From: an uncultured Anaerolineales bacterium
GTDB lineage: Bacteria; Chloroflexota; Anaerolineae; UBA3071
Length of the DNA: 41,501 bases
Direction: 5' to 3'
Assembly: GCA_965369635.1 (NCBI GenBank)
Contig: CBDURC010000002.1
Location: forward strand, 1 to 41,501
Positions 5,463 through 32,195 of the stretch are shown piece after piece. Position 1 is the first letter of the stretch. Every line of letters starts with the position of its first letter. The translations under genes and the position numbers were made by a program. The notes below the pieces were generated by a model. It made no database searches, was not told where the DNA came from, and was given only the letters and a program-made list of their open reading frames with translations.

Positions 5463-6269
5463 GGCCACTTTGGTCGAGGAATTGGCCTCGTCAAGAACCT
5501 GGAGGAGACCCCGATTCCGCAACGCAAACGGGTTCATACGCCCCAGACCAAACTCTTTGAGTTTCTGCTTGCCATTCTGGGGGGTTGCGCCTACTTGCAG
5601 GACCTGAGTCACGGGCCACATCCTTTGGACAAAGATCAGGCGGTTGCCGATGCCTGGGGCCAGCCAGGTTGGGCTGACTACAGCGGCGTGAGCCGCACCC
5701 TAAAGGTCTGCGGCGAAACCATCGCCAACTGCCCCTACTGACTGGATGTGGCTCTGGAACGCTTCTACACCGGTGACAAGATGCGGCACGGTGTGTTGCT
5801 GCACTACGGCGAGGAAAAGGTCACGGCCAACCTCTCCGACTGGTTAGGTCTCTACAACGGACGCCAGACCATTGAGGCAGGGATCAAGGAAGGCAAGAAC
5901 GTCTTCCAGATGCGCCATTTGAAGGTGCGTTCCCCAGCTGGGCTGGAGATTCAGGAGCAGTTTGCGGCCTTCGCAGCCGACTTCGTCCGTTGGGCAGCGC
6001 TGTGGCTGCATGAAACCTGCCCCCGTGCGGAGGCACCGTTTGACTGTTCCCAGCCTAGCGTCAAGCAGATGGTAAGGGTTGCAGCCAACACCTCGGCCCA
6101 TGTGATACAAGCACCTGAAGGCTGTTTGGTAGGGTTCACTGAGTTGAGCCCCTTTGTGGGCATCGAACTCCTATTGCACGGCAACAGGTACTTCCAATTG
6201 CCGCTACTGCTATTCAAAAGTGATGATTTCTCGCCGTTATGGTCAACTGGCCCGCCAGTTGCACAATAG
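5463..6269 (+). pseudogene. Internally deleted DDE transposase remnant (IS4/IS1380 superfamily)
   Basis: An N-terminal piece (KLFEFLLAILGGCAYLQDLSH...YSGVSRTL) runs into an in-frame TGA at 5739. It is followed in the same frame only by the C-terminal Y-x2-R-x3-E-x6-K block (LYNGRQTIEAGIKEGKNVFQM). The catalytic DD core is missing. Confidence 0.6.
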
Positions 6270-6352
6270 TTACGCCAGCGTAGTTGTCCAATTCTAGGGG
6301 GGCACTACAGCACGAGACTATGGCTTCGTACTTTGCCACTCGGGAGAATGTC

Positions 6353-6886
6353 ATGCAGAGAGTAAGAAGAGAACAGGTTTTTGTGCTGTTGGTTTCCGGT
6401 TTTGAGGAAGTGGATGTGTCTACAGTGATACGCAACCTGCGTAGGTTTGGGTTTCTGGTGACGGTCGTGGGGCTAACGGCAGGTTCAGTGCGCGGAGCCT
6501 ATGGTGTGTTGCTCGTACCGGAGGCGGTCCTCGGTGAAGTGGAGAATGAGCAGCCCTGTGCCGTGGTGCTACCAGGGGGGAGTGCAGAGTGCCAGACAAT
6601 TGAGCGCCGATCCTCGAGTGCACGCCTTGCTGCGCCGGGTGATTGCTCAAGGAGGGGGTATACGTGTCCTGGACGCGGCTTATCCGGTCTTGCCCAGTGC
6701 GGGAGTGTTGGGCAGGATCGGAGCGGACTCTGTTGAGAGGCCAGTATCCGGATGGCGTGGAACGGGGGCACTTTCCGAACGAGTGGTGACGGATGGGCGA
6801 TGATCTTTGGTCAAGATTCGGGATCAGCTCAAGAAGCCACGCTGACATTGGCGGCATTGCTCGAAGGTGGTGGAATGAAACGGTGA
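6353..6886 (+). pseudogene. DJ-1/PfpI family gene with at least two frameshifts
   Basis: Homology runs through three frames: VFVLLVSGFEEVDV...AVVLPGG; then QLSADPRVHALLRRVIAQGGGIRVLD...VVTDGR; then GSAQEATLTLAALLEG. The nucleophile-elbow Cys is not visible. Confidence 0.5.
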
Positions 6887-12040: not shown

Positions 12041-12817
12041 ATGCATACCCACTCGATTTCCGCCAAGCACCATCTGACCCACGCCAGCTTTCGCCGCTTG
12101 CTTTGCCTGCTCGCCGTTAGCATTGGCTTTGTGCTGGTGCTTGCCGGATGTGGCGATATAGAACAGGATGTGACGTTCTATGCCAATGAAAAATGGAAAG
12201 CGGAGTCTCGCGTCGGGTTGTCGCCGGAGGAACTTGCTATGGCTGGTGGTCAGGCAGAGATAGAGGCGTCTCTGAACGAGGGGCAGGCCACCGCCGAGGC
12301 ACAAGAGCTTGATTTTCGATGGAAGCGCCAGAAGGGCGACGACGACCGCCTGTATTACATCATCACTATGGCGGGAGAGGGATACGACCTGCTCAATCAG
12401 AACGCGTTTGGCGACACCGCCACGATTGACACGATCACGTACGATGGTCAAGATGCTGTCCAGTTCGACTTTGCATCACCCTATGACCTGTCTCACTACG
12501 AGTTGACTCTCCATGCTGGTGAGGTGCTCGATACCAATGGCAGTCAGGAGGGCAAGGGAGAAGTCCACTGGTCTGGTGCTGGTAAAAGGATGTACGCGGT
12601 TTTTGAGCCTCGAAGTGGACCAAACTGGCTGCTACTGGTTCTGGGATTGATCATGCTGGGTGCCATGGCTGTTGCTGGCTTTTTCTTCATCCGATCGTGG
12701 CAACACCAGCGAGGCCAGAAGACCGCCACAGCGTCGGCAAACTTCTGTCACAAATGTGGCACCAAGCTGGAGGGAGCAGGTAGATTCTGCCCGTCTTGTG
12801 GAGCCAGGCGAGCTTAA
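12041..12817 (+). CDS. Lipoprotein-type ectodomain - TM - C-terminal zinc ribbon protein
   Basis: 258 aa. Lipobox VLAGC, a ~165-aa unknown ectodomain, TM LLLVLGLIMLGAMAVAGFFFI, and the C-terminal ribbon CHKCGTKLEGAGRFCPSCG. AAGGAG RBS. Starts 2 nt after the preceding stop. Confidence 0.75.
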   Translation: MHTHSISAKHHLTHASFRRLLCLLAVSIGFVLVLAGCGDIEQDVTFYANEKWKAESRVGLSPEELAMAGGQAEIEASLNEGQATAEAQELDFRWKRQKGDDDRLYYIITMAGEGYDLLNQNAFGDTATIDTITYDGQDAVQFDFASPYDLSHYELTLHAGEVLDTNGSQEGKGEVHWSGAGKRMYAVFEPRSGPNWLLLVLGLIMLGAMAVAGFFFIRSWQHQRGQKTATASANFCHKCGTKLEGAGRFCPSCGARRA

Positions 12818-12875: not shown

Positions 12876-13814
12876 ATGCGTTGTCCTCACTGCAATGCTT
12901 CAGATGCCGGCAGCGGCAAGTTCTGCATTCACTGCGGCATGGCGCTGCCGCTTCAACCTGTGTCAACGACGCAACAGCCTGATCAAGCCGGTTCCCTCAT
13001 GTCCCGCGAAGACACCTCGCCGCAACCGCTTGCCACCAGACGAGATGTCGAGCTTCCCCAGAAGCGGCCAGCAACCGAGAGACCGGTTGCCCCTATGGGA
13101 CCAACTACCACCGCGCCGGCTAGCATTTGGGGGCCGTTCGCTGGCTACGGTACGCGAGGCCGCCACGTTGCCTGGTTGCTCGATGACTTGGGCCACCGCG
13201 CCGAAGATCTGCGTCAGGCAGTAACAGCGCGCTTTCAGCAGCGACGCATCCCTGGTGCAGATGTGATACCACGCATTCTGACTGCAAAGGGTGTGTTGGT
13301 CGAGCAACGCCCCTACTACCTCGTTCAGCGGGGCCGGGCCACGGCAGGCCTCTACCTGGCCAGGTTCGGTGAGGACATCTACATCTCCCAGGTCACCTAT
13401 TTCAAGAGTCCTGTCAGCACGGTGCGCATTCTTATTGCCGCCGCCTTGATTGCTTTCATAATTGCCTACCCTGCGATGCTCTCCTCAGCCGCAGATGACG
13501 TGTCAGCCGATCTGTTCGGTGGCGTCTACGGCGCGGGCGAGCTAGCCAGAATGCTGTGCTGCCTCGGGCCTTTCTACCTGGTGAGCTTTCTGGTCTTGAC
13601 ATTGGTTGCCCTGATGAGCCTGTGGAAGTTCATCACCGAGAAGGACCTCCTGGCGCCACTACGAGTACAGCCCAACGAGTTCGACCAGGACGATCTGATC
13701 GCCCTGGAGAAAGCTGTCGAGCAGACCGTGCGCGAGTCGCTGGACGTCGTGGGCATTGATCGCCAGCTCATGCCGCCGGCAGCGCGCTACGGCTTACGAG
13801 GACGCATCATTTGA
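12876..13814 (+). CDS. N-terminal zinc ribbon - cytoplasmic domain - 2-3 TM membrane protein, partner of the downstream ATPase
   Basis: Start set at ATG 12876 (GAGGGAGG RBS). The ribbon MRCPHCNASDAGSGKFCIHCG begins at residue 3. A ~120-aa domain follows (HVAWLLDDLGHRAEDLRQAV...YYLVQRGRATAGLYLARFGEDIYISQV). Hydrophobic segments are ILIAAALIAFIIAYPAML and LCCLGPFYLVSFLVLTLVALMSLW. The stop TGA overlaps the next start. Confidence 0.7.
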   Translation: MRCPHCNASDAGSGKFCIHCGMALPLQPVSTTQQPDQAGSLMSREDTSPQPLATRRDVELPQKRPATERPVAPMGPTTTAPASIWGPFAGYGTRGRHVAWLLDDLGHRAEDLRQAVTARFQQRRIPGADVIPRILTAKGVLVEQRPYYLVQRGRATAGLYLARFGEDIYISQVTYFKSPVSTVRILIAAALIAFIIAYPAMLSSAADDVSADLFGGVYGAGELARMLCCLGPFYLVSFLVLTLVALMSLWKFITEKDLLAPLRVQPNEFDQDDLIALEKAVEQTVRESLDVVGIDRQLMPPAARYGLRGRII

Positions 13815-16504
13815 TCTCGCCAATTGAAATGAACAGCTTCCCACTGGTCCACACCGCCAATCAAGCTGCCACCTTTGGCTTCAGGCTGCCGTACCTGCCG
13901 GATTTCTTGGAAGACCACACGCTGGTCGGCGAGCGACGAGCCGAGAAAGTCGAGGAGGTGCTGGCCCGCCAGGTGCAGTTTATCGAGACGTTGTGGCGCT
14001 GGCGCAACACGGCTTTCAGCTTGCGTTACCTCTACGAGCCAGGGGCAGCGACGTTGCAAGTAGCGCTTCTGGCCCGTATTGCCGGTCGTCCACAGACAAG
14101 CCGTCGCGCCGGACAGGAGTTGGCCGCTAATCTACTGCGCCTGGGCCAGGCCTTCAGTTTACCGCTCCAGCCAATCGAGCATCAGAACGAGTTGCTGCAC
14201 CTGCTCGATCCTTTCGACCAGGCTGCCATCGTGGAACTGCGCCAGCGCGATGATGTGGTGCCACTGACCTGGCTCAACAGCGATGCCTACGTTGTCTACC
14301 CGCTGGGCCAGCCGGCTGGTAGCTTTCTGCCACCGTTCCAGAGCCTGGCCCACTACGCCGATCCTATTCTGATCAACCTGCACATCCAACCTACACAACT
14401 GAGCGGGCAGGAGACCCAGGCTCTGGCCGAAGCAGCCAGCATCGCCCAGACCGCCAGTGATTGGCAACGCCAGGGCTACAGTCCTCAGCACAGCGGCCGC
14501 TTCGTTGATCCGCAGGCGCAACTGGTGGCTCAGGCCTACAGCGGTTATCTGCGCCGGTTGTCGCAGCCTTTCCTGGTCGTCGCTCAGGTGGTTAGCCCCA
14601 ACCCCGTGGCCTCTATGAGCCTGGCCCAATCGTTGGCGGTAGCTGCTACCGTTCGTCCTGCCGGTCAGAATACCGGCAACGAGCTGCCCCCTGCGCTTGA
14701 CTGCCTTCCCGCCCTCCACCCAGACGATGCCCAGCGGGCCAGGCAAACGCTGAGTGAACTCAATCTAGCGATTTGGGGGAACCACAGGGCTACGCCGGGC
14801 AAGGAACGGTTCCGCTATCTCGTCGATGCCCGGGGGGCTGCGGCCCTGTTTCGGTTTCCCATAGCTGTGCAGGGCGGCATTCCTGGCATCGTCGTACGAC
14901 AGGCGGCGCCCGACTTCGTGGCGGGCGAGCAGCGGCATCACTTGCAGGCGGGTGAGCTGCACCTGGGCAACTACCAGAGCGGTGGCAACGTGGTGATGCC
15001 CATTGCTCACCTGACCCGCCACGGCCTGATCGCCGGTCTGCCCGGCAGCGGCAAGACCAACACATGCCTCTACCTGCTGGATCAGCTCTGGCGACGGCAT
15101 GGCGTTCCCTTCTTGGTCATTGAGCCGGCCAAGACGGAATACCGCGGGTTGCTCCGGCAGCCGGGCTACGAGGATCTGCTCATCTTCACCCTGGGTGACG
15201 AGACCACTGCGCCCTTCCGGCTCAATCCATTCGAACTGCTGCCAGGCGTGCGCGTGGAGACCCACCTGGAGATGCTCAACGTGGCCATCAATGCCGCCCT
15301 GCCCCAGTTTGGCGTCCTGCCCACCATCATCGAGGAGGCGTTGGAGAATGTCTACGCCCAGCATGGCTGGGAACTGACGGATCGGGCGGGCGAGGATAGC
15401 AATCGCTTGTTCCCCACCCTGGGGGACTTCTATCGAGAAGCCGTGCGGGTCGTGGGAGAGCGCGGCTACAGAGGTGAGCTGCGCGACAACATCACCGCCG
15501 CCGTCAAGGGACGTATCGGTAGCCTGCTGCGGGGCAGCAAGGGCATGATGTTCAACTGCCGCCGCTCGCTGCCGCTGGAGCACCTGCTCAGGCGGCCAGT
15601 GATTCTGGAAATGGACGCTCTCAACGATGACGCCAAGGGGTTGGCCATCATGTTCCTGTTGATTCTGCTGCGTGAGCACCGGCGCACGACTCGCGGAAAT
15701 CAGCCCCGGCGCGGCCTGCGCCACTTACTGCTCATCGAAGAAGCGCATCGGGTGATGGAAAACGTGACCTCGGTAGGGCCATCGGAGGTGGCGGCCGACA
15801 CCCGGGCCAAGGCTGTGCGAGTCATCACCGACTTCCTGGTAGAAATGCGAGCGATGGGTCAGGGCATGTTGATTGCCGAGCAGAGCCCGGAGAAGTTGGC
15901 CCCCGACGCAGTGCGCAACACCAATCTGAAGATAGCGCACATGCTACCAGGCAGGCAGGATCGCGAAACGCTGGCAGCGGCCATGATCATGGACGAGCAA
16001 CAGGAGCTCTTCATGGGCAAGTTGCGGGTAGGCCAGGCGGCCGTGTTCATGACCGGATTCGAGAAAGCCACCTTCATGCGGGTGCCTAACTACAAGGATA
16101 GCGTGGGCTTTGCCGACCATCTGCCGGATGCAGCCGTGGTGGAGCACATGGTTGGCTATCGCCAAACGGCGCAGCAGCACTACCTGCCCTTCGACGGCTG
16201 TCGCTTTTGTGGCGAGCCGTGCTATCACCGTCGGGCCATTGAGCCGGTCACGCGGCACAGGGAGATAGCTCAGCGCTTTCAGGTGGCCTTGCTGGCCTTC
16301 GATGAGCGTCCGCAACCGGAGCACTGGCCTGACAACTGGCGCGGCGTGGCCGGAGTGTGCGCCGAGGCGGCGGCGCAAGCTGGTCTGCCTGGAGGAAAGG
16401 AGGTTGCCTACTGCTATTTCGCCCACGAAGTTGATTTTCCGTTCACCGAGCACATGCGGCGCGAGTTTGTGCGGGCTGTTGAGGCATTGCCGGCGAGCGG
16501 GTAG
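13811..16504 (+). CDS. HerA/FtsK-superfamily (DUF87-like) P-loop ATPase with a ~400-aa unknown N-terminal domain and a Cys-knuckle C-terminal domain
   Basis: 897 aa. Walker A GLPGSGKT (15035-15058). Walker B LLLIEEAH (15725-15748). HerA-type block RNTNLKIAHMLPGRQDRE. C-terminal CRFCGEPCYH knuckle. TTG start at 13811 lies 8 nt after GAGGA and overlaps the upstream TGA (TTGA). Confidence 0.8.
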   Translation: MISPIEMNSFPLVHTANQAATFGFRLPYLPDFLEDHTLVGERRAEKVEEVLARQVQFIETLWRWRNTAFSLRYLYEPGAATLQVALLARIAGRPQTSRRAGQELAANLLRLGQAFSLPLQPIEHQNELLHLLDPFDQAAIVELRQRDDVVPLTWLNSDAYVVYPLGQPAGSFLPPFQSLAHYADPILINLHIQPTQLSGQETQALAEAASIAQTASDWQRQGYSPQHSGRFVDPQAQLVAQAYSGYLRRLSQPFLVVAQVVSPNPVASMSLAQSLAVAATVRPAGQNTGNELPPALDCLPALHPDDAQRARQTLSELNLAIWGNHRATPGKERFRYLVDARGAAALFRFPIAVQGGIPGIVVRQAAPDFVAGEQRHHLQAGELHLGNYQSGGNVVMPIAHLTRHGLIAGLPGSGKTNTCLYLLDQLWRRHGVPFLVIEPAKTEYRGLLRQPGYEDLLIFTLGDETTAPFRLNPFELLPGVRVETHLEMLNVAINAALPQFGVLPTIIEEALENVYAQHGWELTDRAGEDSNRLFPTLGDFYREAVRVVGERGYRGELRDNITAAVKGRIGSLLRGSKGMMFNCRRSLPLEHLLRRPVILEMDALNDDAKGLAIMFLLILLREHRRTTRGNQPRRGLRHLLLIEEAHRVMENVTSVGPSEVAADTRAKAVRVITDFLVEMRAMGQGMLIAEQSPEKLAPDAVRNTNLKIAHMLPGRQDRETLAAAMIMDEQQELFMGKLRVGQAAVFMTGFEKATFMRVPNYKDSVGFADHLPDAAVVEHMVGYRQTAQQHYLPFDGCRFCGEPCYHRRAIEPVTRHREIAQRFQVALLAFDERPQPEHWPDNWRGVAGVCAEAAAQAGLPGGKEVAYCYFAHEVDFPFTEHMRREFVRAVEALPASG

Positions 16505-16541
16505 TGCTGAGAATCGTAATGACGAAAGGAGAGATTTGACA

Positions 16542-16910
16542 ATGAACTGTCCCAGTTGTAACGCCGTCAATCCCGATGGCGGCAGATTCTGTATGACTTG
16601 CGGCCAGCCATTATCTGCTGTGACGGCATCCAGCGCCACCGACGTTCCAGCTACTGCGTCCGCGGCAAAGATGACTACGTCACCCACTGCACCGCCTATC
16701 GCAGCTCTGCCCGTGAACAGCGCGGCGGGTATGCAAAGCCTGAGAGTCGTCGTGACCGACGTGAACATGCAATTTGGATCGATGGTTGTCTTCATGATCA
16801 AGTGGGCATTGGCGGCAATTCCTGCCGCTATCGTGCTCGTACTTGCGTTTGCCCTGATCTCGGCAATCTTTGGCGGCTTGTTAGGTGGAATCCTGTCCAC
16901 CCTCTTCTGA
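16542..16910 (+). CDS. Small zinc ribbon - linker - two-TM membrane protein (DUF4282-like, unverified)
   Basis: Start trimmed to ATG 16542 (AAAGGAGAG RBS). The ribbon MNCPSCNAVNPDGGRFCMTCG starts at residue 3. Ser/Thr/Ala/Pro linker, then a hydrophobic C-terminal half FGSMVVFMIKWALAAIPAAIVLVLAFALISAIFGGLLGGIL. Confidence 0.7.
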   Translation: MNCPSCNAVNPDGGRFCMTCGQPLSAVTASSATDVPATASAAKMTTSPTAPPIAALPVNSAAGMQSLRVVVTDVNMQFGSMVVFMIKWALAAIPAAIVLVLAFALISAIFGGLLGGILSTLF

Positions 16911-17088: not shown

Positions 17089-17604
17089 ATGTATCAACAA
17101 CAGCCCTCCAAGAACCCAGCTCTGGCAGCCATCCTCAGTTTCCTGATCAATGGTCTGGGGCAGATCTACAACGGAGAGATTGCCAAAGGGATCATCATCA
17201 TTGTCGTCCAGATTGTGAACGGGTTGCTGACTATGGTGATTATCGGTTTCATCACTTTGCCTATCGTCTGGATCTGGTCGATCTACGACGCCTATACGGT
17301 TGCCCAGAAGATCAATGAGGAGGCCACAACACAGGTCATTGAGGGAACCAAGCAATGCCCGCGTTGCGCTGAACGTGTTCATTTGAGTGCACAGGTTTGT
17401 CGCTATTGCGGCTATCAGTTCGTTCCGGCTGTAGCAGCCCTAGCAACGCCTGCGCAGCAACCGGTTTTCCCTCAGTCGCCTCCTTCTGCACAGCCGCCAC
17501 AGCCGGCTGCGGCGCAAACAAAGCCCTGTCCCCAGTGTGGTCAGCAGGCTCAAGCCGAGGCACGCTTCTGTATGCATTGCGGATATGCGTTTGAGACAGC
17601 ATAG
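17089..17604 (+). CDS. Small two-TM membrane protein with two C-terminal zinc ribbons
   Basis: 171 aa. N-terminal NPALAAILSFLINGLGQIYNG motif plus a second TM. Ribbons CPRCAERVHLSAQVCRYCG and CPQCGQQAQAEARFCMHCG are separated by a Pro/Gln/Ala linker. Confidence 0.75.
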   Translation: MYQQQPSKNPALAAILSFLINGLGQIYNGEIAKGIIIIVVQIVNGLLTMVIIGFITLPIVWIWSIYDAYTVAQKINEEATTQVIEGTKQCPRCAERVHLSAQVCRYCGYQFVPAVAALATPAQQPVFPQSPPSAQPPQPAAAQTKPCPQCGQQAQAEARFCMHCGYAFETA

Positions 17605-19648: not shown

Positions 19649-20143
19649 ATGCCATCAGACACCTCCGATCACAGAGATACCAAGAGTGTCCGAGAAGCCC
19701 GTTCAGATACGGCCTCCACCGCCAAGCGGCTGAGACCGACCGGCAGGCGGGCCATGCAGGGCAAGTTGTCGCCCGAGAAATCGCCCTCGATTGGTTCACT
19801 CCGGAAGGAAGCCGTGTACAATGCCTGGAAGCAGGAGAGTGAGTTGGTTCGAGCCGCCGGGAGCGGTACTCGTTCCTGGAAACCAGGTGAACTGAGCCGA
19901 CTGCGCCGGCTGCGCCCAGGAGAGACGATAAAGGGCTACGAGGGACATCACATGTACAATGTGAAGCACCATCCCAGGTGGGCAGGCGACCACCGCAATA
20001 TCGAGTTCGTGACGGAAAAAGAGCACCTGGCGCGGCATCCAGGCAATTTCCATAAACCCACCACGGGAAAGCTCATTGATCGGGAGAAGATGATCAGGAC
20101 GGCGCGCAGGAACCGCCAACAGGTACGATACGCCAAGTCATGA
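19649..20143 (+). CDS. Stand-alone HNH/EndoVII-fold nuclease toxin domain protein, GHH type (Tox-GHH-like)
   Basis: 164 aa. Basic, disordered N-terminal ~70 aa, then WKPGELSRLRRL...IKGYEGHHMYNVKHHPRWAGDHRNIEFVTEKEHLARHPGNFHKPTTGKLIDR (GHH at 19943-19951). GAGGAG RBS 8 nt upstream. Domain assignment is from remembered family signatures and has not been searched. Confidence 0.6.
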   Translation: MPSDTSDHRDTKSVREARSDTASTAKRLRPTGRRAMQGKLSPEKSPSIGSLRKEAVYNAWKQESELVRAAGSGTRSWKPGELSRLRRLRPGETIKGYEGHHMYNVKHHPRWAGDHRNIEFVTEKEHLARHPGNFHKPTTGKLIDREKMIRTARRNRQQVRYAKS

Positions 20144-20154
20144 GGAGGAATCTG

Positions 20155-20580
20155 ATGATTGAGCAGATCAAGTCTTTTCTAATGGATCACGGCTGGGAGT
20201 TTGAGCAGGTCGATGAGTGCACAATCGCCACTGGTTTCACCTCTTCCCTGCCCGATGGCCGTGAGCACAGCTTTCCACTATACGTCATGATCCTCAGGGA
20301 CATGTTCGAGGACCTGTATGTCCGTCTGGGCATTGTGCCCTACGTGGACAGGCCGAAGGCTGGCTACGCTGCCAATCTCCCCAGTCTGATCACCCAGATT
20401 AACCATGACCTGCCAGAGCTGAAACTTGCCGTTGATCCTGATGGGGATTTGGAGTTGCTCCTTGACATGCCCGCAAGTCAGGTCGATCAGGCTCGCTTTG
20501 ATGCGGCGATCCAGTCTGTGGCTGACTACGCAGGCCTCTACTACAACGAAGTTGCGTCTGCTTCAGTATCAGGCTCGTGA
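20155..20580 (+). CDS. YbjN / T3SS-chaperone-like small acidic protein, putative immunity or antitoxin partner
   Basis: Preferred start is ATG 20155 (MIEQIKSF), 6 nt after a perfect AGGAGG. An alternative ATG at 20140 overlaps the toxin stop as ATGA. The pattern is YbjN-like: GWEFEQVDE...F.LYVMI...LYVRLGIVPYV...LAVDPDGDLELLLDMP. Confidence 0.55.
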   Translation: MIEQIKSFLMDHGWEFEQVDECTIATGFTSSLPDGREHSFPLYVMILRDMFEDLYVRLGIVPYVDRPKAGYAANLPSLITQINHDLPELKLAVDPDGDLELLLDMPASQVDQARFDAAIQSVADYAGLYYNEVASASVSGS

Positions 20581-23564: not shown

Positions 23565-25982
23565 ATGTATACCGTGAAGATGCTCAACAGTGGAGATGAT
23601 GTGCTTGGACTACTACGACACGTTGCCACCGGACTTGCACTGACCGCTGTCGTTGCGCTGGCTCTACCGGTGGTGGGCAGTTCAGGCCGGCTGGAGACGG
23701 AATCCTCCGGGCCGACCACAATGCAGACTGAACGGAAGGCCTTGCTGGATGGGCGGATCGTTCCAGTGGATAGAACCGATTGGCCTGATGGTGCTACGCC
23801 CAACGCGATCTTTCCGCGGCGATCCAGCGAGCCCATGGACATGAGTGGTCGCATCGCGTTCGAGACGGATCGCGACAGTGCGTTCAACCTGTACGTGAAA
23901 CATGCTGGCGGTGGCAGTCTGGCCACCACGTTGGTCACCAGTGGGGGCAACGATGTGACGCCCGTCTGGTCGCCCGACGGCGGCCAGGTTGTCTTCGCCA
24001 GCGACCGAGGCGGTGACTACGACATCTACCTACGCACGGCCAGCGGCCAGGAGCACAAGCTAACCCACAATGCGGCCGACGACGTCCATCCAGCTTGGTC
24101 ACCCAGCGGGGATCGCATCATCTTCTCCTCTGACCGCAGCGGGAGCTATTTCCAAGTCTACACTATGCGCGCTGACGGCAGTGACGTGCGACAGGTTGGG
24201 GTCGTGCCAGGCAACAACGCCATGTATCCGCGCTACTCGCCGAACGGCAGCAGGATCGCTTTCATGCGGGCCAGCGTCACGGCTCCCCTCTGCCAGTGGA
24301 ACTGGGACGTCTGGCTCATGAACGCCGACGGCAGCAACCAGCGGCGGGTCACAACCAGCTTGGTCGCTGATGTGTATCCCAATTGGAAGCCCGATGGCAG
24401 TGCGATCATATATGGCAGTTGTCGCAACTTCTTGGATTTCGACCTCTATCTGGTTAATCCAGATACAGGTGCCGAATCCCAGCTCAACGCCTGGTTTCTC
24501 AGCAATGAATGGGGGGCTGTGTACTCGCCTGACGGCCAGTCCCTGGCCTTCGACACGGACTACGAGGGTGACATCGAGATCTACACAGCGCCCGCAGCCG
24601 GCGGTACAGCCTCCAATTTCACGCTGCACATGGCGAACGACCTATCCCCCAGTTGGGGCGACCCGTCCGCCGTGCCTACGTACTCGATCTCCGGCCGCGT
24701 GACTGGGGAAATAAACAATCCGGTACCCGGTGTGACTATCTCCACCGGAGTAGGGCACACCGCTATCACGGACGCCGCCGGCAACTACGCCCTCACTGGC
24801 CTCTTTGCTGGCACCTATACCCTCACCCCGTCCGATCCCGGCTACACCTTCTCGCCGGCTTTACGCTCGGCTACCGTACCGCCGGACGCGACTGACGTTG
24901 ACTTTAGAGCCTACGATGCCGTTTCGCCTGACGGTCGGGTGACGTCGCCAGAGGACGGTACGACCATTGGCCATGGCACGATCATGATCGCTGCTGATGC
25001 CTGGGACAACCCAGGTGGTAGCGGAGTCGCCCGGGTTGATTTTTACGTTAGCTACGACGGCATCCAGCACTGGGTAGACTCTGACGACTCTGTACCCTAT
25101 ACGACGACATGGTCAGTACTCGAAGACCTGCGCTCACAGCAACTCAGGTTCTCTGTGTTCCTGGTGGACAATGCTGGAAATGGCTCCTTTGGGTCTGAGA
25201 GCAACTTGGTGACGTTCCTTGAGTCTTCTGGTGCCCCCGATGTAAGTGAGAACTGGGTGCCAAGGGGCCAGCGAGCGTACTTGAACCAGCGATCCCTGCC
25301 GAGTGGCGACAGCAAGTGTAGCGCTGCCAGTATGTCCATGGTGCTAGCAATGAGCGGCCTGATAGACTCGGACTATGACACCATGGCCAGCAAAGCCAAC
25401 GACATGTACCCTAACGTGCTGGTAAATGGAACGGCCTATGTTTATCAGATGAGGAATGAACTCCGTAACCAGGGCGCGGCGTCGGAGTATGTCGAGGGTA
25501 CAGCAGAGCAAGGATGGCAGAAGATCAAACAAGAAGTTGATGCTGGTCGGGCGGTCATTGTCCGGACGGAACATGGCGTCGTTACTGCAGCGGGCCACTT
25601 CTTTGTGGCTGTTGGCTACCGAGAGACTTCTACAGAACGCCAGATCATCAACTACGACCCCTATGGACGCTGGCAAGGCACTTGCTGCCAGAACAACTAC
25701 GACAAGAACAGTCAGAATCCGAATAGTCACAAAGGGCGATGGGTTCTCTACGACTTCAATCGGGTCTTTGGAAACTACAACTACCTGATTACCGCTTCAC
25801 CGCCACCTCTCTCCGAGTCACTGACGGTGGAAGACACTCCGGACACGGCGCCAGATGAGATTAGCACTGAGCCAGAGGACATTGACACATATCTCGGTGT
25901 TCCCACGGGGGGCTCTACCCTTTTGGATCAACAGGTATTCCTGCCGCTAACACTAGGCTCTCGCTCCTTTGCTCACCGATAG
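23565..25982 (+). CDS. Exported PD40/TolB-like beta-propeller - CarboxypepD_reg-like - Ig-like - C39-like (papain-fold) cysteine peptidase protein
   Basis: 805 aa with an N-terminal hydrophobic anchor or signal. PD40 repeats: PVWSPDGGQVVFASDRGGDYDIY, PAWSPSGDRIIFSSDRSG, PRYSPNGSRIAFMR, PNWKPDGSAIIYGS, AVYSPDGQSLAFDTDYEGDIEIY. SISGRVT...GVTIS...TDAAGNYALTGLFAGTYTLTP. Peptidase motifs KCSAASMSMVLAMSG (Cys codon 25317) and GHFFVAVGY...NYDPYG. No zinc ribbon. Confidence 0.75.
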   Translation: MYTVKMLNSGDDVLGLLRHVATGLALTAVVALALPVVGSSGRLETESSGPTTMQTERKALLDGRIVPVDRTDWPDGATPNAIFPRRSSEPMDMSGRIAFETDRDSAFNLYVKHAGGGSLATTLVTSGGNDVTPVWSPDGGQVVFASDRGGDYDIYLRTASGQEHKLTHNAADDVHPAWSPSGDRIIFSSDRSGSYFQVYTMRADGSDVRQVGVVPGNNAMYPRYSPNGSRIAFMRASVTAPLCQWNWDVWLMNADGSNQRRVTTSLVADVYPNWKPDGSAIIYGSCRNFLDFDLYLVNPDTGAESQLNAWFLSNEWGAVYSPDGQSLAFDTDYEGDIEIYTAPAAGGTASNFTLHMANDLSPSWGDPSAVPTYSISGRVTGEINNPVPGVTISTGVGHTAITDAAGNYALTGLFAGTYTLTPSDPGYTFSPALRSATVPPDATDVDFRAYDAVSPDGRVTSPEDGTTIGHGTIMIAADAWDNPGGSGVARVDFYVSYDGIQHWVDSDDSVPYTTTWSVLEDLRSQQLRFSVFLVDNAGNGSFGSESNLVTFLESSGAPDVSENWVPRGQRAYLNQRSLPSGDSKCSAASMSMVLAMSGLIDSDYDTMASKANDMYPNVLVNGTAYVYQMRNELRNQGAASEYVEGTAEQGWQKIKQEVDAGRAVIVRTEHGVVTAAGHFFVAVGYRETSTERQIINYDPYGRWQGTCCQNNYDKNSQNPNSHKGRWVLYDFNRVFGNYNYLITASPPPLSESLTVEDTPDTAPDEISTEPEDIDTYLGVPTGGSTLLDQQVFLPLTLGSRSFAHR

Positions 25983-26042: not shown

Positions 26043-26219
26043 ATGCCTGTTGAGAAGCTCGCAACCGATACTGCCTCTATGGCTGCCCACTTGGTCGAGA
26101 CCATCATCAAGGATGTGTGGTCGAAACTGGATGCGGCATCAGAGAAACCCAAGCCCAGTGAATACCTTGGCCAGCGTGCCATCAGCGCTATTCAAGGACA
26201 CAGGGATGCGGGTGAATAG
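26043..26219 (+). CDS. Hypothetical small protein (58 aa)
   Basis: ATG 26043 lies 6 nt after GAGGTG. Coding-like codon usage in an otherwise empty 254-nt gap. No recognisable motif. Confidence 0.3.
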   Translation: MPVEKLATDTASMAAHLVETIIKDVWSKLDAASEKPKPSEYLGQRAISAIQGHRDAGE

Positions 26220-28052: not shown

Positions 28053-29954
28053 ATGGCCAAGCCCAAATTCTGTCCCTACTGCGGCGAACCAACCGGCTCT
28101 CAACTCGGCAACTTCTGCATGGCCTGTGGCAAGCCCCTGAGCAAGACACCAGAACCAGCACCTAGGAAAACCGCTACGGCAGCGGCCGCCCCGCAGCTTC
28201 GGGTGCCGAAGCCTGCAAAGGTGTCAAAACCCCGCCTGCCGCGCTCTCTATCGGTTCGCCGTTTCCGCATCTTTGTTCCCACCACCCTATTTGGCATCTT
28301 CGATGTCATCGCAGTGATTGCCGCTGTCATCGTGCTGGCTGTCACGCAGATCCGTCCCCCATCCAGCAGTTGCCAGCCCCTGACCCCACCTGAGGATGCC
28401 CGTGTAGCTGATAGTCGCGATACCATATCCGGCAAGCTCAGCGGCTTTGTGATTCTGCAAGCCGGCCAAACCTACGACTTGACAGGAGCGGTGACCGTTC
28501 TCGAGGAGGCCACACTGCAGATTGAAGCGGGGGCGCGTCTACACTTTGATCGGGGTGCCCGGCTCGACGTCAACGGTCTGATCCACGCCTGCGGCAACCG
28601 CAGCAATCCGATCATATTCACCTCCAACCGCGACGGCGCGACCAGCGGGCCGGTCGCCAAGGCAGGCGATTGGCAGGGGATTCGCATCCTCGACTCCAGC
28701 AGTGATTCCTCAATTCTGAATCACGTCCAGATACGCTTTGCCGGTAGCGATAACTACCCCGCCATCTATCTGGATCAGGCCTCGCCCACGCTGGCCGACG
28801 TGCGAATCACCGACAGCGCCGCCTTTCCTATCAGCGCCGACGTCATTTCAGAGCCCAAGTTCGCCGGCGACGTGATCCTGGATAACAACGCTGTCAAAGG
28901 CATGGAAGTGCGCGGCGGTGAGCTGTACGGCAGCACGACGTGGGAAGGCAGCGAAGTTGTGCGTGTAATCAGCGGCAACATAACCATCAAGGATAGCGGT
29001 CGTCTGACCATCAAGCCAGGCCTGGTGCTGAAGTTCGGCGACAACCGCGGGCTAAACGTCGAGGGCACGCTGATCGCCGTCGGCGGGCGGGGTGCGCCCA
29101 ACCTCAACGATGGCAAGAGCATCGTCTTCACCGGGTTGCGAGATGACGCAGCGGCAGGCGATACCGATCTGCACACAGCCGAGCCTGATGCCGGCGACTG
29201 GCGGGGCATCACCTTCCGCGAGAGTAACCGCAATACCAGTCTGCGCCGGGCCTTCGTACGCTACGCCGGTCAGGATGGCCGCGCCGCTATCCATCTGGAG
29301 AATGCCGATCCAGAGCTGTCGGACGTTGCTATCGAGCACAACGCCGGCTATGCTATCAGCAGCGACGCCGTTTCCTCACCCGAGATCAGCAACCTGATTC
29401 TTAGCGACAATGGACTGGGCAGCGGTTGGGAAATCCGAGGCGGAACGCTGTCCGAGCGGGCAACCTATCGCTGGCAGGCTACTCGTGGGCTGGTGCGAGT
29501 GGTTAGCGGCAACCTGGCCGTGGGCCGAGAGGCTACCTTGGTCATTGAAGAGGGTGTCCAAGTGCGCTTTGCTCTGGGTACAGGGCTGAACGTTGACGGC
29601 GCCCTGGAGATTGCCGGCGGCGAAGATCGCCCGGTCGTGATGAGTTCGCTTCGCGATGATGCCGACGACGCCGGTGGCGACGTAGATGGCAGCGCAGCGA
29701 CCTCGGCACCGGGCGATTGGCGAGGTGTGACCTTCGGCCCCAACAGCAATGATCGGCGCAGCGCTGTGCGCCATACCTTGATCCGCTACGCCGAAAGCGG
29801 CCTGAGATTCGACGGCGTGGGGCCTGCGGTAGAGAACGTGACCGTGGAGCAATCCAGAGGCTCCCCATTACGCTGTGACGGCAACGCCCGACCATCTTTC
29901 AGCAACATCACCCTGTTCGACAATGCGGAGAGTGCTACCTGTGACATCCCTTAA
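28053..29954 (+). CDS. Zinc ribbon - TM - right-handed parallel beta-helix repeat ectodomain protein
   Basis: 633 aa with a GGAGG RBS. Ribbon FCPYCGEPTGSQLGNFCMACG. TM LFGIFDVIAVIAAVIVLAV. Three iterations of a ~190-aa module carry GDWQGIRI/GDWRGITF/GDWRGVTF and IRFAGSD/VRYAGQDG/IRYAESG. Confidence 0.75.
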   Translation: MAKPKFCPYCGEPTGSQLGNFCMACGKPLSKTPEPAPRKTATAAAAPQLRVPKPAKVSKPRLPRSLSVRRFRIFVPTTLFGIFDVIAVIAAVIVLAVTQIRPPSSSCQPLTPPEDARVADSRDTISGKLSGFVILQAGQTYDLTGAVTVLEEATLQIEAGARLHFDRGARLDVNGLIHACGNRSNPIIFTSNRDGATSGPVAKAGDWQGIRILDSSSDSSILNHVQIRFAGSDNYPAIYLDQASPTLADVRITDSAAFPISADVISEPKFAGDVILDNNAVKGMEVRGGELYGSTTWEGSEVVRVISGNITIKDSGRLTIKPGLVLKFGDNRGLNVEGTLIAVGGRGAPNLNDGKSIVFTGLRDDAAAGDTDLHTAEPDAGDWRGITFRESNRNTSLRRAFVRYAGQDGRAAIHLENADPELSDVAIEHNAGYAISSDAVSSPEISNLILSDNGLGSGWEIRGGTLSERATYRWQATRGLVRVVSGNLAVGREATLVIEEGVQVRFALGTGLNVDGALEIAGGEDRPVVMSSLRDDADDAGGDVDGSAATSAPGDWRGVTFGPNSNDRRSAVRHTLIRYAESGLRFDGVGPAVENVTVEQSRGSPLRCDGNARPSFSNITLFDNAESATCDIP

Positions 29955-32181
29955 ACGTAACTGCCCGGCCTGCGGCCAGCCCAATCCACCCAACGCCCGA
30001 TTCTGTATCCGGTGCGGTCAGCCTCTGGCAGAGCCACCGCGCCTGTCGGCCAGGGAGACTCCGGAAGCCGCTGATGGCAACGTGGTCGTGCCCCAGTCTG
30101 ATCAGAAGGCTATCGTCATTGGACGTGATCCTCGGCTCAGCCAACGGGGAGGCTATTTCCTCAACCATCCTGCGCTGTCGTTCCACCACGCTCGGATCGA
30201 ACGCCGCGGCAGCGGTTGGTTCGTTGTGGATCTGAACAGCGAGAAGGGCACGTTTGTTGACTACACCGCCGTGCCGCCCGGCCCAGAAGGTTTGCCCATC
30301 GGCCCCGATAGTGTGGTATGGATCGCTCCCTACGCCTTTCGGGTGCGCAGCCGGGGCGATCGGAGTCCGCTGGAGCAAGCGCACATGCAATTGGACGCTG
30401 TGGATCTGAAGCGCACGGTGCCCGGTGGCAGGCGCGGCGAGTCGATCACCATCCTGGATACGCGAGGCGTGCCCCTTTCCTTTCGACCCGGCGAATTCAT
30501 CGCCCTGGTGGGTGGCAGCGGCACGGGCAAGACCACGCTGATGAAGGCGATCAACGGACTGGCGCCGGCACAAGAGGGTCAGGTGCTGATTGACGGGTCT
30601 CCCATCATCGACGCCGGCAATGCTCGTCAGTTCGCTGCACTCTACAGTATCATCGGCTATGTGCCGCAGGATGACGTGATGTATCGCGATCTGACTGCCA
30701 ACGAGGTACTCACCTACACTGCTCGCCTGCGTTTGGCCAGCCTGAAGCGGGACGAGATGAACCGAGTGATCGAGCAGACGCTGGTCGCAGTAGAGTTGAG
30801 CGAGCATGCCCACAAGCGCGTCGTTCAACTCAGCGGCGGCCAGCGCAAGCGGGTTAACATCGCCATGGAGCTAATCGCCCAACCGCGGCTGCTTTTCCTG
30901 GATGAGCCTACCTCTGGCCTCGATCCGGGCCTCGACTTGGAAGTGATGATGCTCCTGCGGCGATGGGCCAGGGGCCAGGTAGTGGCTGGTGACGGCGGCC
31001 AGACATCAGCAGCCGATCCCAAGACCATCATCCTGGTAACCCACGCCACCGAGAACATCGAGCTGTGTGACTATATCGCCTTCATGGCAACCGGCGGGCA
31101 GTTGGCCTATTTCGGTCCACCGGCGGAGGCAAAACAGTTCTTCTGCCCCTCACGACCGGCTGAGACCGTCACCTATTCTGAAATCTACCGCCTGGTAGCC
31201 AGCACACCAGCAGACGCTGAAACCGGGGCAGTCACCTGGCCCGAGCGCTTCCGGCAGAGTGACTTTTTCCAGCGCTACGTCATCAGCCGCGCGCCAGCGG
31301 CTGTATCGGATACCAAGATAGCACCGGCAGCAGGCGCTGAGCCGCCAACACCCTGGTCTCGACGATTCAGCGGCCAGCGCCTGCGCAGTGCTATGGGCCA
31401 ACTCCGCATCCTGGTCGGCCGTTACAGCCGTTTGGTCTCCAGGGATCGGCTCAACGCCGGCATGTTGTTGTTTCAAGCGCCGCTGACTGCGATGTTATTG
31501 GGGGCTGTCTCTTCGCCCAATGCCCTGCGACCGGCTGGCGCATTAGATGCTGAGAAGGTGCTGTTCATCCTGGCCTGCGCCGCCACCTGGCTGGGGATCA
31601 TCAATGGCACCAAGGAAATCGTCAAGGAGCAGGATATTTACCAGCGCGAGCGGCTGTATGGTCTGGGGGCGGTGCCCTACGTGCTGTCCAAGATCTCTGT
31701 GCTCGGCATCATAGCCTTGCTGCAGACAGTACTCCTGGTGCTGTTTGTGGCGCTGCAATTCGAGCTGCCCGCAGGAGGGGTCTTTCTGCCCCTGTCTGCC
31801 GAGATGTTCATTACCCTCTCTTTGAGCATGATCGCCGGTCTATCGCTGGGTCTGCTGATCTCGGCCTATGCGCGAACGTCTGACCTGGCGACGTCGCTCA
31901 TGTTCCTGGCGCTGATCGTGCAGATCATCTTCTCTGGCCTGCTCTTCGACGCCAGCGGGCTGGCGCAGATACCATCTCTGCTGACGACTAGCCGCTGGGG
32001 ATTGGAGGCGCTGGGTGCCAGTGCCAACCTCAACAGTCTGCTGGTTAGTGCCATTCCCGGTTACGATTGGGACGCAGGATATGCCAGCAGTGGACCAAAC
32101 CTTGTCATTCATTGGTTCATCCTGGTGACATTCAGTGCCGTTCTGATTGCTCTCACCTGCCGCCGCCAGGCACGCAAGTAG
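29941..32181 (+). CDS. Zinc ribbon - FHA - ABC ATPase - ABC-2 permease fusion (ABCG/White-type half transporter)
   Basis: Ribbon NCPACGQPNPPNARFCIRCG. FHA-like IVIGRDP...HHARIERRGSGWFVVDLNSEKGTFVD. Walker A GGSGTGKTT (30511-30537). Signature LSGGQRKRV. Walker B LLFLDEPTSGLD. Six C-terminal TM helices. Start is uncertain: GTG 29941, ATG 29923 or ATG 29875. All three overlap the previous gene's end (29954). Confidence 0.8.
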   Translation: MTSLKRNCPACGQPNPPNARFCIRCGQPLAEPPRLSARETPEAADGNVVVPQSDQKAIVIGRDPRLSQRGGYFLNHPALSFHHARIERRGSGWFVVDLNSEKGTFVDYTAVPPGPEGLPIGPDSVVWIAPYAFRVRSRGDRSPLEQAHMQLDAVDLKRTVPGGRRGESITILDTRGVPLSFRPGEFIALVGGSGTGKTTLMKAINGLAPAQEGQVLIDGSPIIDAGNARQFAALYSIIGYVPQDDVMYRDLTANEVLTYTARLRLASLKRDEMNRVIEQTLVAVELSEHAHKRVVQLSGGQRKRVNIAMELIAQPRLLFLDEPTSGLDPGLDLEVMMLLRRWARGQVVAGDGGQTSAADPKTIILVTHATENIELCDYIAFMATGGQLAYFGPPAEAKQFFCPSRPAETVTYSEIYRLVASTPADAETGAVTWPERFRQSDFFQRYVISRAPAAVSDTKIAPAAGAEPPTPWSRRFSGQRLRSAMGQLRILVGRYSRLVSRDRLNAGMLLFQAPLTAMLLGAVSSPNALRPAGALDAEKVLFILACAATWLGIINGTKEIVKEQDIYQRERLYGLGAVPYVLSKISVLGIIALLQTVLLVLFVALQFELPAGGVFLPLSAEMFITLSLSMIAGLSLGLLISAYARTSDLATSLMFLALIVQIIFSGLLFDASGLAQIPSLLTTSRWGLEALGASANLNSLLVSAIPGYDWDAGYASSGPNLVIHWFILVTFSAVLIALTCRRQARK

Positions 32182-32195
32182 CAACGGAGTTTTCT

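Follow-up and report, generated by a model that had tools for sequence, protein, structure and literature searches.

We analysed a 41,501-nucleotide (nt) stretch of DNA from an uncultured Anaerolineales bacterium (contig CBDURC010000002.1, positions 1 to 41,501; this whole stretch is referred to as the window). We found that the gene of a P-loop ATPase in it belongs to a conserved module, which consists of the ATPase, a membrane protein encoded immediately upstream (the partner), a small protein that we call s57, toxins tagged with a common leader motif, and immunity genes. The gene pair of partner and ATPase is real and conserved across Chloroflexota. Our preferred reading, which we hold to be somewhat better than an even guess, is that a membrane-anchored HerA/VirB4-class motor recognises the leader and exports polymorphic toxins. 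The members of the module in the window are the following.

12876..13814, + strand: partner, 312 amino acids (aa), with a ribbon, a linker, an alpha/beta domain, two transmembrane (TM) helices and a conserved C-terminal helix.
13811..16504, + strand: ATPase, 897 aa, three domains.
13811..14935, + strand: N-terminal domain (NTD) of the ATPase, residues 1-375, a confidently folded alpha/beta region.
14936..16105, + strand: P-loop domain of the ATPase, residues 376-765, HerA/VirB4 class (Pfam, PADLOC, hhalign, Foldseek, invariant residues).
16106..16504, + strand: helical C-terminal domain of the ATPase, residues 766-897 (invariant Cys columns, model).
19649..20143, + strand: leader-tagged toxin, 164 aa, with a C-terminal HNH/EndoVII nuclease domain (Pfam Tox-GHH, 8e-12).
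20140..20580, + strand: YbjN-family protein, 146 aa (Pfam YbjN, 30.4 bits versus a cutoff of 22).
26043..26219, + strand: s57, 58 aa, MPVEKLATD...WSKLDAASEKPKPSEYLGQRAISAIQGHRDAGE (phmmer across loci, alignment).

The comparison rests on a set of 90 loci, namely the window, loci L001-L009 and 80 loci from metagenomes. The set is metagenomic for the most part and contains some redundancy; it collapses to 59 non-redundant clusters at 90% ATPase identity. Six-frame open reading frames (ORFs) of all 90 loci were searched with the window proteins, and gene boundaries were taken from our own ORF scan. We found that the partner lies 5' of the ATPase on the same strand in 38 of the 41 testable non-redundant clusters and is directly adjacent in 30. 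The neighbourhood of the two genes, on whose recurrence in other genomes the initial annotation had staked the significance of the pair, is thus kept well outside the window. At least 25 pairs of partner and ATPase homologs sit on contigs of matching size, and one such pair has neighbouring NCBI locus tags (VF707_03875 and VF707_03880). Synteny of the module persists across ATPases that are 45-75% identical to that of the window. An insert of ~5-6 kb separates partner and ATPase in 5 loci, including L003 and L004. The one in L004 (L004:3832-9977) encodes a 959-aa FtsK_SpoIIIE-family ATPase (Pfam, 4.8e-30) and four ORFs without a family, which places a second, different FtsK-type motor inside the module; it may be either an accessory or a mobile insertion. 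We considered and rejected a loss of partner-ATPase linkage in L003 and L004, as a ~6 kb insertion, with its FtsK_SpoIIIE gene in L004, explains the split.

Several searches support the membership of the ATPase in the HerA/FtsK/VirB4 superfamily, in line with the HerA/FtsK-type assignment made initially from the sequence alone. The DUF87/HerA central domain of Pfam scores above its gathering threshold (27.7 versus 23.2 bits), and HerA_C, FtsK_SpoIIIE and AAA_22 match weakly. PADLOC returned the mad8 model over residues 385-747 (9.7e-9) and several HerA models, and the best named NCBIfam match is CedD (2e-13), limited to residues 671-745 and to 49.8 bits against a 600-bit cutoff. Alignment of the ATPase domain with the VirB4 C-terminal domain by hhalign gave 97% probability (E 4e-11), the VirB4 alignment comprising 10 members (from R388, accession NC_028464, and nine other plasmids); a comparison of our ATPase alignment (A1) with the single TrwK sequence was insensitive. 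Foldseek of the ATPase model against the PDB placed full-length TrwK/VirB4 of R388 first (3e-11), followed by DndH-C, SIR2-HerA, the C-terminal domain of Thermoanaerobacter VirB4 and HerA-NurA; E-values to VirB4, DndH-C and HerA span 1e-7 to 3e-11. PDB-chain sequence and profile searches gave HerA-type matches only, confined to the ATPase core. Matches to S7 and CheY were dismissed as noise (E 0.04-0.5). None of the models in Pfam, PADLOC or NCBIfam spans both the partner and the ATPase, as the initial annotation had anticipated in setting the pair apart from known defence and secretion systems.

The motifs named in that annotation are all present: Walker A (GLPGSGKT, 15035-15058), Walker B (LLLIEEAH, 15725-15748), the HerA-like block RNTNLKIAHMLP and the knuckle CRFCGEPCYH. 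The P-loop domain also contains QSP...RNTNLKIAH. Across the 34 homologs of alignment A1 the catalytic residues are invariant, namely G409, G412, G414, K415 and T416 of Walker A, E643, E644, A645 and H646 of Walker B, Q691-S692-P693 and R702-N703-T704-N705. Invariance of these residues points to an active enzyme. C797, C800, C804 and C868 are likewise invariant, and C850 and H872 nearly so. The CxxCxxxC motif (window 16199-16222) and the distant Cys are thus fixed in a helical C-terminal domain without known relatives, and this domain presumably holds a metal site, either Zn or an Fe-S cluster, judging from the conserved columns.

The AlphaFold model of the ATPase has a mean predicted local distance difference test score (pLDDT) of 75.6, with ~90 over residues 10-330 and ~85 for the C-terminal helices 805-892; the Cys loop (792-802) is of low confidence. 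Both termini had been described as matching nothing recognisable. This description survives for library searches, since neither the NTD (Pfam, PDB-chain sequence and profile searches) nor the C-terminal domain (Pfam, PDB-chain profile search, hhalign against VirB4) had a match, but it understated the NTD, which folds confidently. Comparison of the NTD with the VirB4 NTD alignment by hhalign gave no signal (probability 0.1%). The Foldseek E-value to TrwK, however, improves as more of the NTD is resolved in the TrwK chain (5e-5 for 457 aa, 2.4e-8 for 711, ~3e-10 for 750-810 and 3e-11 for the full chain), and the model hence hints at a VirB4-like two-domain architecture. No TM helix is seen in the ATPase model.

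The family to which this ATPase belongs is large. With sequences clustered at 50%, a profile search retrieved 6481 representatives at a limit of E <= 1e-3 and 3142 at one of E <= 1e-30. Most representatives are ~900-1000 aa long and matched over their full length; the family is currently annotated only as 'DUF87' or 'ATP-binding protein'. Homologs are conserved over the full length at 45-75% identity. Close ones come from Anaerolineae, Caldilineales, Ardenticatenaceae and Promineifilum assemblies, and a single-sequence scan of genome contigs added 3 close relatives. One cluster member was found in a Smithella metagenome-assembled genome, and the family therefore reaches beyond Chloroflexota. 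A phage origin was dropped, as a scan of viral contigs gave 7 distant matches that cover the ATPase core only. Distant clades with ATPases of ~1050-1070 aa are represented by L008, L009, L107 and L109. Zincin-like proteins follow these distant ATPases (ATLF-like in L009, with an HExxH motif in L008 and DA1-like in L107), and L002, a close relative of the window, has a zincin-like protein as well. Other genes adjoining the distant ATPases encode HSP70/GrpE/DnaJ-TPR-RDD, vWA, PP2C, Ser/Thr kinase, TerD, rhomboid and zinc ribbon-FHA proteins.

The partner starts with the ATG at 12876, directly preceded by GAGGGAGG. Its N-terminal zinc ribbon (CPHC...CIHC, ligands C3, C6, C17 and C20) is followed in the AlphaFold model (pLDDT 79) by a disordered linker, a beta-alpha-beta4 domain at residues ~85/90-176, two long TM helices (182-207 and 220-255) and a C-terminal helix at 268-292 with the near-invariant sequence PNEFDQDDxxALEKAVEQTVRE. 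The ribbon and the cytoplasmic domain had been recognised correctly at the outset, and the count of TM segments, left at two or three, is two in the model. With two TM helices, both ends of the protein are cytoplasmic. Homologs are conserved over the full length (45-66% identity, alignment A2). The partner had no match in Pfam, NCBIfam or PADLOC, and Foldseek against the PDB gave nothing at E < 1e-3; its fold was left without assignment after weak TBP-like, PsbP, DcrB and SRPBCC matches (best E 5.6e-3). The hhalign comparison with TrwM/VirB3 was negative (probability 0.1%). In the distant-clade locus L009, the gene directly 5' of the ATPase encodes a 168-aa protein without TM segments that retains the PNEF helix (hhalign versus partner 83%, E 1e-5) and, judged by eye, resembles the alpha/beta domain. 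Because of this relative, the soluble parts look like the ancestral core of the partner; the TM hairpin may be a later insertion. The proposal of a membrane-tethered motor agrees with an ATPase that has no TM segment and is encoded alongside a two-TM protein. The partner is likely a membrane anchor or adaptor for the ATPase, and possibly a channel for it.

The junction of the two genes is as originally described. The TGA of the partner (13812-13814) overlaps the TTG start of the ATPase at 13811 (TTGA), and GAGGA at 13798-13802 lies 8 nt 5' of this TTG. Translation might alternatively start at the in-frame ATG at 13829, and the collection's own gene call for the window (P0001) also yields an ATPase of 897 aa. 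The 4-nt overlap is peculiar to the window; gaps of 13-60 nt separate partner and ATPase in other loci.

After the partner, the most consistently linked gene is s57, which the initial annotation did not mention. It is found downstream of the ATPase in 41 of 53 testable non-redundant clusters, usually 10-90 nt 3' of the ATPase stop; in the window it lies 9.5 kb downstream, where it has an ATG start with its own GAGGTGA ribosome-binding site. The family comprises proteins of ~57-58 aa with the consensus ...VKKAWSIMDAASEKKxPSEYLSxxAIxAIQGK, and no Pfam or NCBIfam family covers it. A short motif like the leader described below is present at its C-terminus.

Leaving s57 aside, ~50 distinct proteins of 95-320 aa encoded downstream of the ATPase carry the motif ...(E)KLSPxGIxAMQG(D/E). 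Its distribution is strongly biased: per 10,000 aa, the pattern [GA][IMV]xx[IMV][QR]G is found 3.14 times in ORFs that lie downstream on the same strand, versus 0.22 times in upstream ORFs and 0.07 times in ORFs of the opposite strand. The median start of the motif is residue 31 (interquartile range 28-33, 45 leader proteins), and it is preceded by a polar, acidic N-terminus; a hydrophobic N-terminus or Sec-type signal was found in 0 of 46 leader proteins. Among the loci with at least 3 kb of downstream sequence, 30 of 53 encode one to three leader proteins by a pattern that is strict and that variants escape. Leader genes may stand in tandem, up to three in a row (L035, L076, L082). Five of 45 leaders end in QGG.

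Domains found by Pfam on the 46 leader proteins include Tox-GHH (three proteins), ParB_N (three), Peptidase_C39_2/C70 (two), Endonuclea_NS_2, WHH, AHH, Colicin-DNase and a DUF6782 metallopeptidase, and NCBIfam assigned no family. Most of these domain families are among those that define polymorphic toxins (PMC3482391). The ORFs immediately after the toxins include SUKH/SMI1_KNR4 (two, E 1e-21) and YbjN (two) proteins, most others being unassigned, and many of them overlap the toxin stop by 4 nt. The leader proteins thus combine a common N-terminal region with variable toxin C-termini and often have an immunity gene directly downstream, as polymorphic toxins do. The toxin of the window follows this scheme, with a polar N-terminus, the leader G32-RRAMQ-G38, and a stop codon overlapped by the start of the YbjN gene (ATGA); from its family and position, the YbjN protein is presumed to be an immunity protein or a chaperone for the GHH toxin. 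The ATPase of L023 shares 73% identity with that of the window; in this locus, a GHH toxin (54% identical to the window toxin) follows the ATPase after a 20-nt gap and is itself followed by YbjN. The initial annotation had held that the cargo of the motor could not be told from sequence; this comparative context points to polymorphic toxins.

Overall, we suggest the following sequence of events. A ring-forming HerA/VirB4-class ATPase, without a membrane segment of its own, would act as the motor. It would be kept on the cytoplasmic side of the membrane through the partner, whose TM helices and PNEF helix might contribute to a channel. The machine would read a linear signal, LSPxGIxAMQG, which lies near residue 31 of the signal-less toxins and also at the C-terminus of s57. 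ATP hydrolysis would then push the polymorphic toxins out of the cell, against competitors, while the producer would be shielded by the immunity gene after each toxin (in the window, Tox-GHH at 19649..20143 and YbjN at 20140..20580). The superfamily and catalytic residues of the motor, the gene order, the leader with its positional bias, the toxin and immunity domains and the lack of Sec-type signals are observations; the binding of partner to ATPase, the hexameric state, the recognition of the leader by the ATPase and the export across the membrane are inferred.

Several points weigh against this proposal. Among the conserved proteins of the module there is no obvious large channel former, and the link between leader and ATPase is a proposed one. 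About two thirds of the leader proteins (~30 of 46) lack a recognised toxin domain, 23 of the 53 loci with at least 3 kb downstream have no leader protein by the strict pattern, and in the window neither s57 nor the toxin is adjacent to the ATPase. HerA-family ATPases also serve as platforms for intracellular defence effectors, and several loci lie near the conflict genes CHAT-TPR and AbiEii, an association compatible with either export or defence.

Other genes surround the module in the window, many of them encoding zinc ribbons, and four of them recur near the ATPase elsewhere.

12041..12817, + strand: accessory protein, 258 aa, with a lipoprotein signal (LAGC) and an extracytoplasmic domain; it has a single TM segment, and its zinc ribbon (Pfam) is C-terminal and cytoplasmic.
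16539..16910, + strand: small zinc-ribbon protein that has a TM segment at its C-terminus, directly 3' of the ATPase in the window.
17089..17604, + strand: TM-hairpin protein with two zinc ribbons, 171 aa (Pfam; downstream recurrence).
23565..25982, + strand: protein with a PD40 propeller, an Ig-like domain and a C39-like peptidase domain, extracytoplasmic with an N-terminal TM anchor (Pfam).

A homolog of the accessory protein is encoded in 34 of 90 loci, mostly just 5' of the partner. The small protein at 16539..16910 has an ortholog at the same position in L002, and homologs of the TM-hairpin protein lie downstream of the ATPase in 9 loci, which are close relatives; whether these two belong to the module is uncertain. 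The gene at 23565..25982 stands directly 5' of s57, and its linkage to the ATPase is limited to 4 loci. Once exported, the proteins may have their leader cleaved, and a role of this C39-like protein as the processing peptidase is speculative.

The products of nearly all + strand genes between 7185 and 34373 combine a zinc ribbon in the cytoplasm (DZR or Zn_Ribbon_1) with a TM segment and an extracytoplasmic domain, the latter of BNR/sortilin, PD40, NAGPA, SH3, DUF3352 or beta-helix type; one gene encodes a ribbon-FHA-ABC-2 exporter. The ATPase homologs P0035, P0046, P0064 and P0085 have an N-terminal ribbon of their own, and ribbons are also found on cytoplasmic kinases and FHA proteins in L007. 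The zinc ribbons are cytoplasmic modules and do not in themselves speak for a 'surface display tag'.

Further observations concern the surroundings of the module. Two unrelated loci encode a large TPR-CHAT (caspase-like) protein at a distance of no more than ~5 kb from it (L001:3012-6221, L004:16508-19537), and in L002 the upstream side has an AbiEii gene and the downstream side a YezG-like immunity gene. G+C content of the window is ~56-64% throughout. Two short ORFs at 5748-6736, a fragmentary DDE transposase (E 0.014) and a DJ-1/PfpI half-domain (4e-14), may be gene remnants that mark the upstream edge of the cluster. The ORFs 29875-32181 and 32067-34373 overlap their upstream neighbours by ~80-115 nt, and their true starts are probably internal, for example before the ribbons at residues ~26 and ~44.

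Four other explanations of the module have to be weighed. HerA is known to scaffold and activate an effector in SIR2-HerA and DUF4297-HerA, and one could therefore expect a tethered HerA-like ring that senses infection, or assembles upon it, and activates leader-docked nucleases or peptidases inside the producer, as an anti-phage or abortive-infection defence. The similarity of the ATPase to defence HerA proteins, Mad8 and DndH-C (Foldseek, PADLOC), the variable nuclease effectors beside a conserved ATPase, the nearby CHAT-TPR and AbiEii genes and, in the distant clades, the vWA, PP2C, kinase and TerD genes typical of conflict systems all fit this explanation. However, tandem leader arrays of up to three genes with differing C-termini, followed by SUKH or YbjN, are a signature of secreted polymorphic toxins (PMC3482391), and all toxin families that we found were defined from secreted toxins. 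Moreover, the partner is not matched by PADLOC, no Sir2, NurA or DUF4297 is encoded in the window or the annotated loci, and the synteny of the module is kept across ATPases just 45-75% identical. We consider intracellular defence unlikely. The idea of the initial annotation, a motor that inserts, extracts or organises zinc-ribbon single-pass proteins for envelope biogenesis or surface display, draws on the ribbon, TM and extracytoplasmic architecture of almost all + strand genes at 7185-34373, on the ribbons of the partner and, in some lineages, of the ATPase, and on the lipoprotein-ribbon gene that is often directly 5' of the partner. It appears quite improbable, since the linkage of the ribbon-tagged envelope genes with the ATPase is poor (beta-helix in 8, FHA-ABC in 7, NAGPA in 3 and DUF3352 in 2 of 90 loci), soluble kinases and FHA proteins have ribbons too, and the best-linked genes, s57 and the leader-tagged toxins, have none. 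Zinc ribbons, besides, fold in the cytoplasm and hence cannot be displayed.

The leader itself could be taken for a double-glycine-type signal, read by an ABC exporter and a C39-like peptidase, in which case the HerA-like ATPase would be unrelated or auxiliary. The consensus of double-glycine leaders is LSxxELxxIxGG, and LSPxGIxAMQG fits its hydrophobic spacing; five of 45 leaders, as noted above, end in QGG. C39-like peptidases are found nearby (23565..25982 in the window, and in L009), two leader proteins themselves have C39_2 or C70 domains, and a zinc ribbon-FHA-ABC transporter is encoded in the window. This transporter, however, is of the ABC-2 type without a fused C39 domain; it occurs within 10 kb in 7 and the C39 protein in 4 of 90 loci. 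The partner and s57 closely track the ATPase. The cargoes, in addition, are folded enzymes of 100-320 aa and not small peptides, and we find such a pathway highly improbable. Finally, full-length TrwK/VirB4 as the top Foldseek matches, the partial CedD match (2e-13) and the small membrane proteins flanking the ATPase might suggest a DNA translocator for conjugation or DNA exchange, akin to type IV secretion systems (T4SSs) or Ced, with the partner in the place of VirB3. Such a function is hardly credible: relaxase, VirD4/TraG, VirB6, VirB8, VirB2 and integrase genes are absent from the nine annotated loci, the partner does not resemble VirB3, the NTD has no profile similarity to that of VirB4, and the CedD score remains far under its cutoff.

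Returning to toxin export, we also put forward, tentatively and at slightly less than an even chance, that partner, ATPase and s57 form the core of a type of protein secretion system of Chloroflexota that has so far gone unrecognised, with relatives of the motor in other phyla, that acts on LSPxGIxAMQG toxins and that has only the P-loop motor superfamily in common with T4SSs and type VII secretion systems (T7SSs). On the same tentative footing, and jointly with that proposal, its unique parts would be the membrane adaptor (ribbon, alpha/beta domain, TM hairpin and PNEF helix), the small co-factor that bears the signal, and the four-Cys domain of the motor. Toxin trafficking by an FtsK/HerA-superfamily motor is of a known kind and the motor superfamily is known; full-text literature searches found no published description of the module, and the catalogue of modes by which toxins are trafficked does not list it. 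Soils, sediments, activated sludge and hot springs all harbour abundant Chloroflexota, about whose protein secretion and competition little is known. The leader, the small co-factor and the toxin-immunity pairs turn an anonymous ATPase family into a testable export pathway. If export is true, the module would count as a new type of secretion system and a new route of interbacterial toxin delivery, with a simple sequence tag by which new toxins and immunity proteins could be picked out of metagenomes. It would also mean that FtsK/HerA-type motors were recruited for protein export a third time, independently of T4SSs and T7SSs. If the module serves defence instead, it would be a new membrane-tethered HerA-effector architecture.

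Compared with known systems, the ATPase resembles VirB4 (TrwK) in being a two-domain ATPase of ~800-900 aa with a homologous C-terminal domain and a full-length Foldseek alignment, and a small membrane protein is encoded immediately upstream, as in the VirB4/VirB3 pair. It differs in an NTD that is unlike by profile, in a partner unrelated to VirB3 and in the extra four-Cys C-terminal domain; T4SS Pfam families were not found in the window or the nine annotated loci. Systems in which HerA acts with an effector (SIR2-HerA/Nezha, DUF4297-HerA) and HerA-NurA likewise combine a HerA-class domain with variable nuclease-type neighbours. However, searches with PADLOC and Pfam revealed no Sir2, DUF4297 or NurA partner in the window or annotated loci, and the module described here has an NTD of ~375 aa that is not a HAS barrel, a dedicated membrane partner, and effector arrays with immunity genes. 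As to MADS, the mad8 match covers the ATPase domain only, and no other Mad model was matched among the ten window proteins scanned. The hydrophobic pattern of the leader resembles that of the double-glycine leaders handled by peptidase-containing ABC transporters; the ABC transporter of the window is of the ABC-2 type with FHA and has no C39 domain. CedB and CedD, which serve DNA import in Sulfolobales, are HerA-clade ATPases with a sizeable NTD that act at the membrane with small membrane proteins (PMC11868833). The window ATPase is likewise a HerA-clade protein with a sizeable NTD, and CedD is its best named NCBIfam match. Only 75 residues of the ATPase core match, however, and the Ced proteins have a TM segment of their own; no polytopic protein like CedA is present here, and the genomic context is one of toxins and not of DNA-damage-induced genes.

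The closest parallel in overall organization is the T7SSb, where the gene of EssC, an FtsK-family motor, has the genes of toxins and of small helical export factors downstream of it (PMC10765036). Here, too, an FtsK/HerA-superfamily ATPase is placed at the membrane. The genes just 3' of it encode small helical proteins and signal-less toxins that have an N-terminal targeting region in common, and immunity genes such as SUKH come after the toxins. The motif common to s57 and the toxin leader recalls the bipartite T7 signal (PMC10765036). WXG100 or LXG families were matched neither by s57 nor by any of the 46 leader proteins (Pfam, NCBIfam), and counterparts of EssA, EssB and EsaA are lacking, the anchor being a separate and unrelated two-TM protein. 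EssC combines several ATPase domains with FHA domains and two TM helices, whereas the ATPase described here has a single HerA/VirB4-type domain and neither TM helices nor FHA; Pfam FtsK_SpoIIIE scores 16.3 bits on it versus a gathering threshold of 24. The non-motor parts of the module are thus non-homologous to those of the T7SSb and the motor comes from a different branch of the superfamily, but the logic of the two systems appears, by analogy, to be alike.

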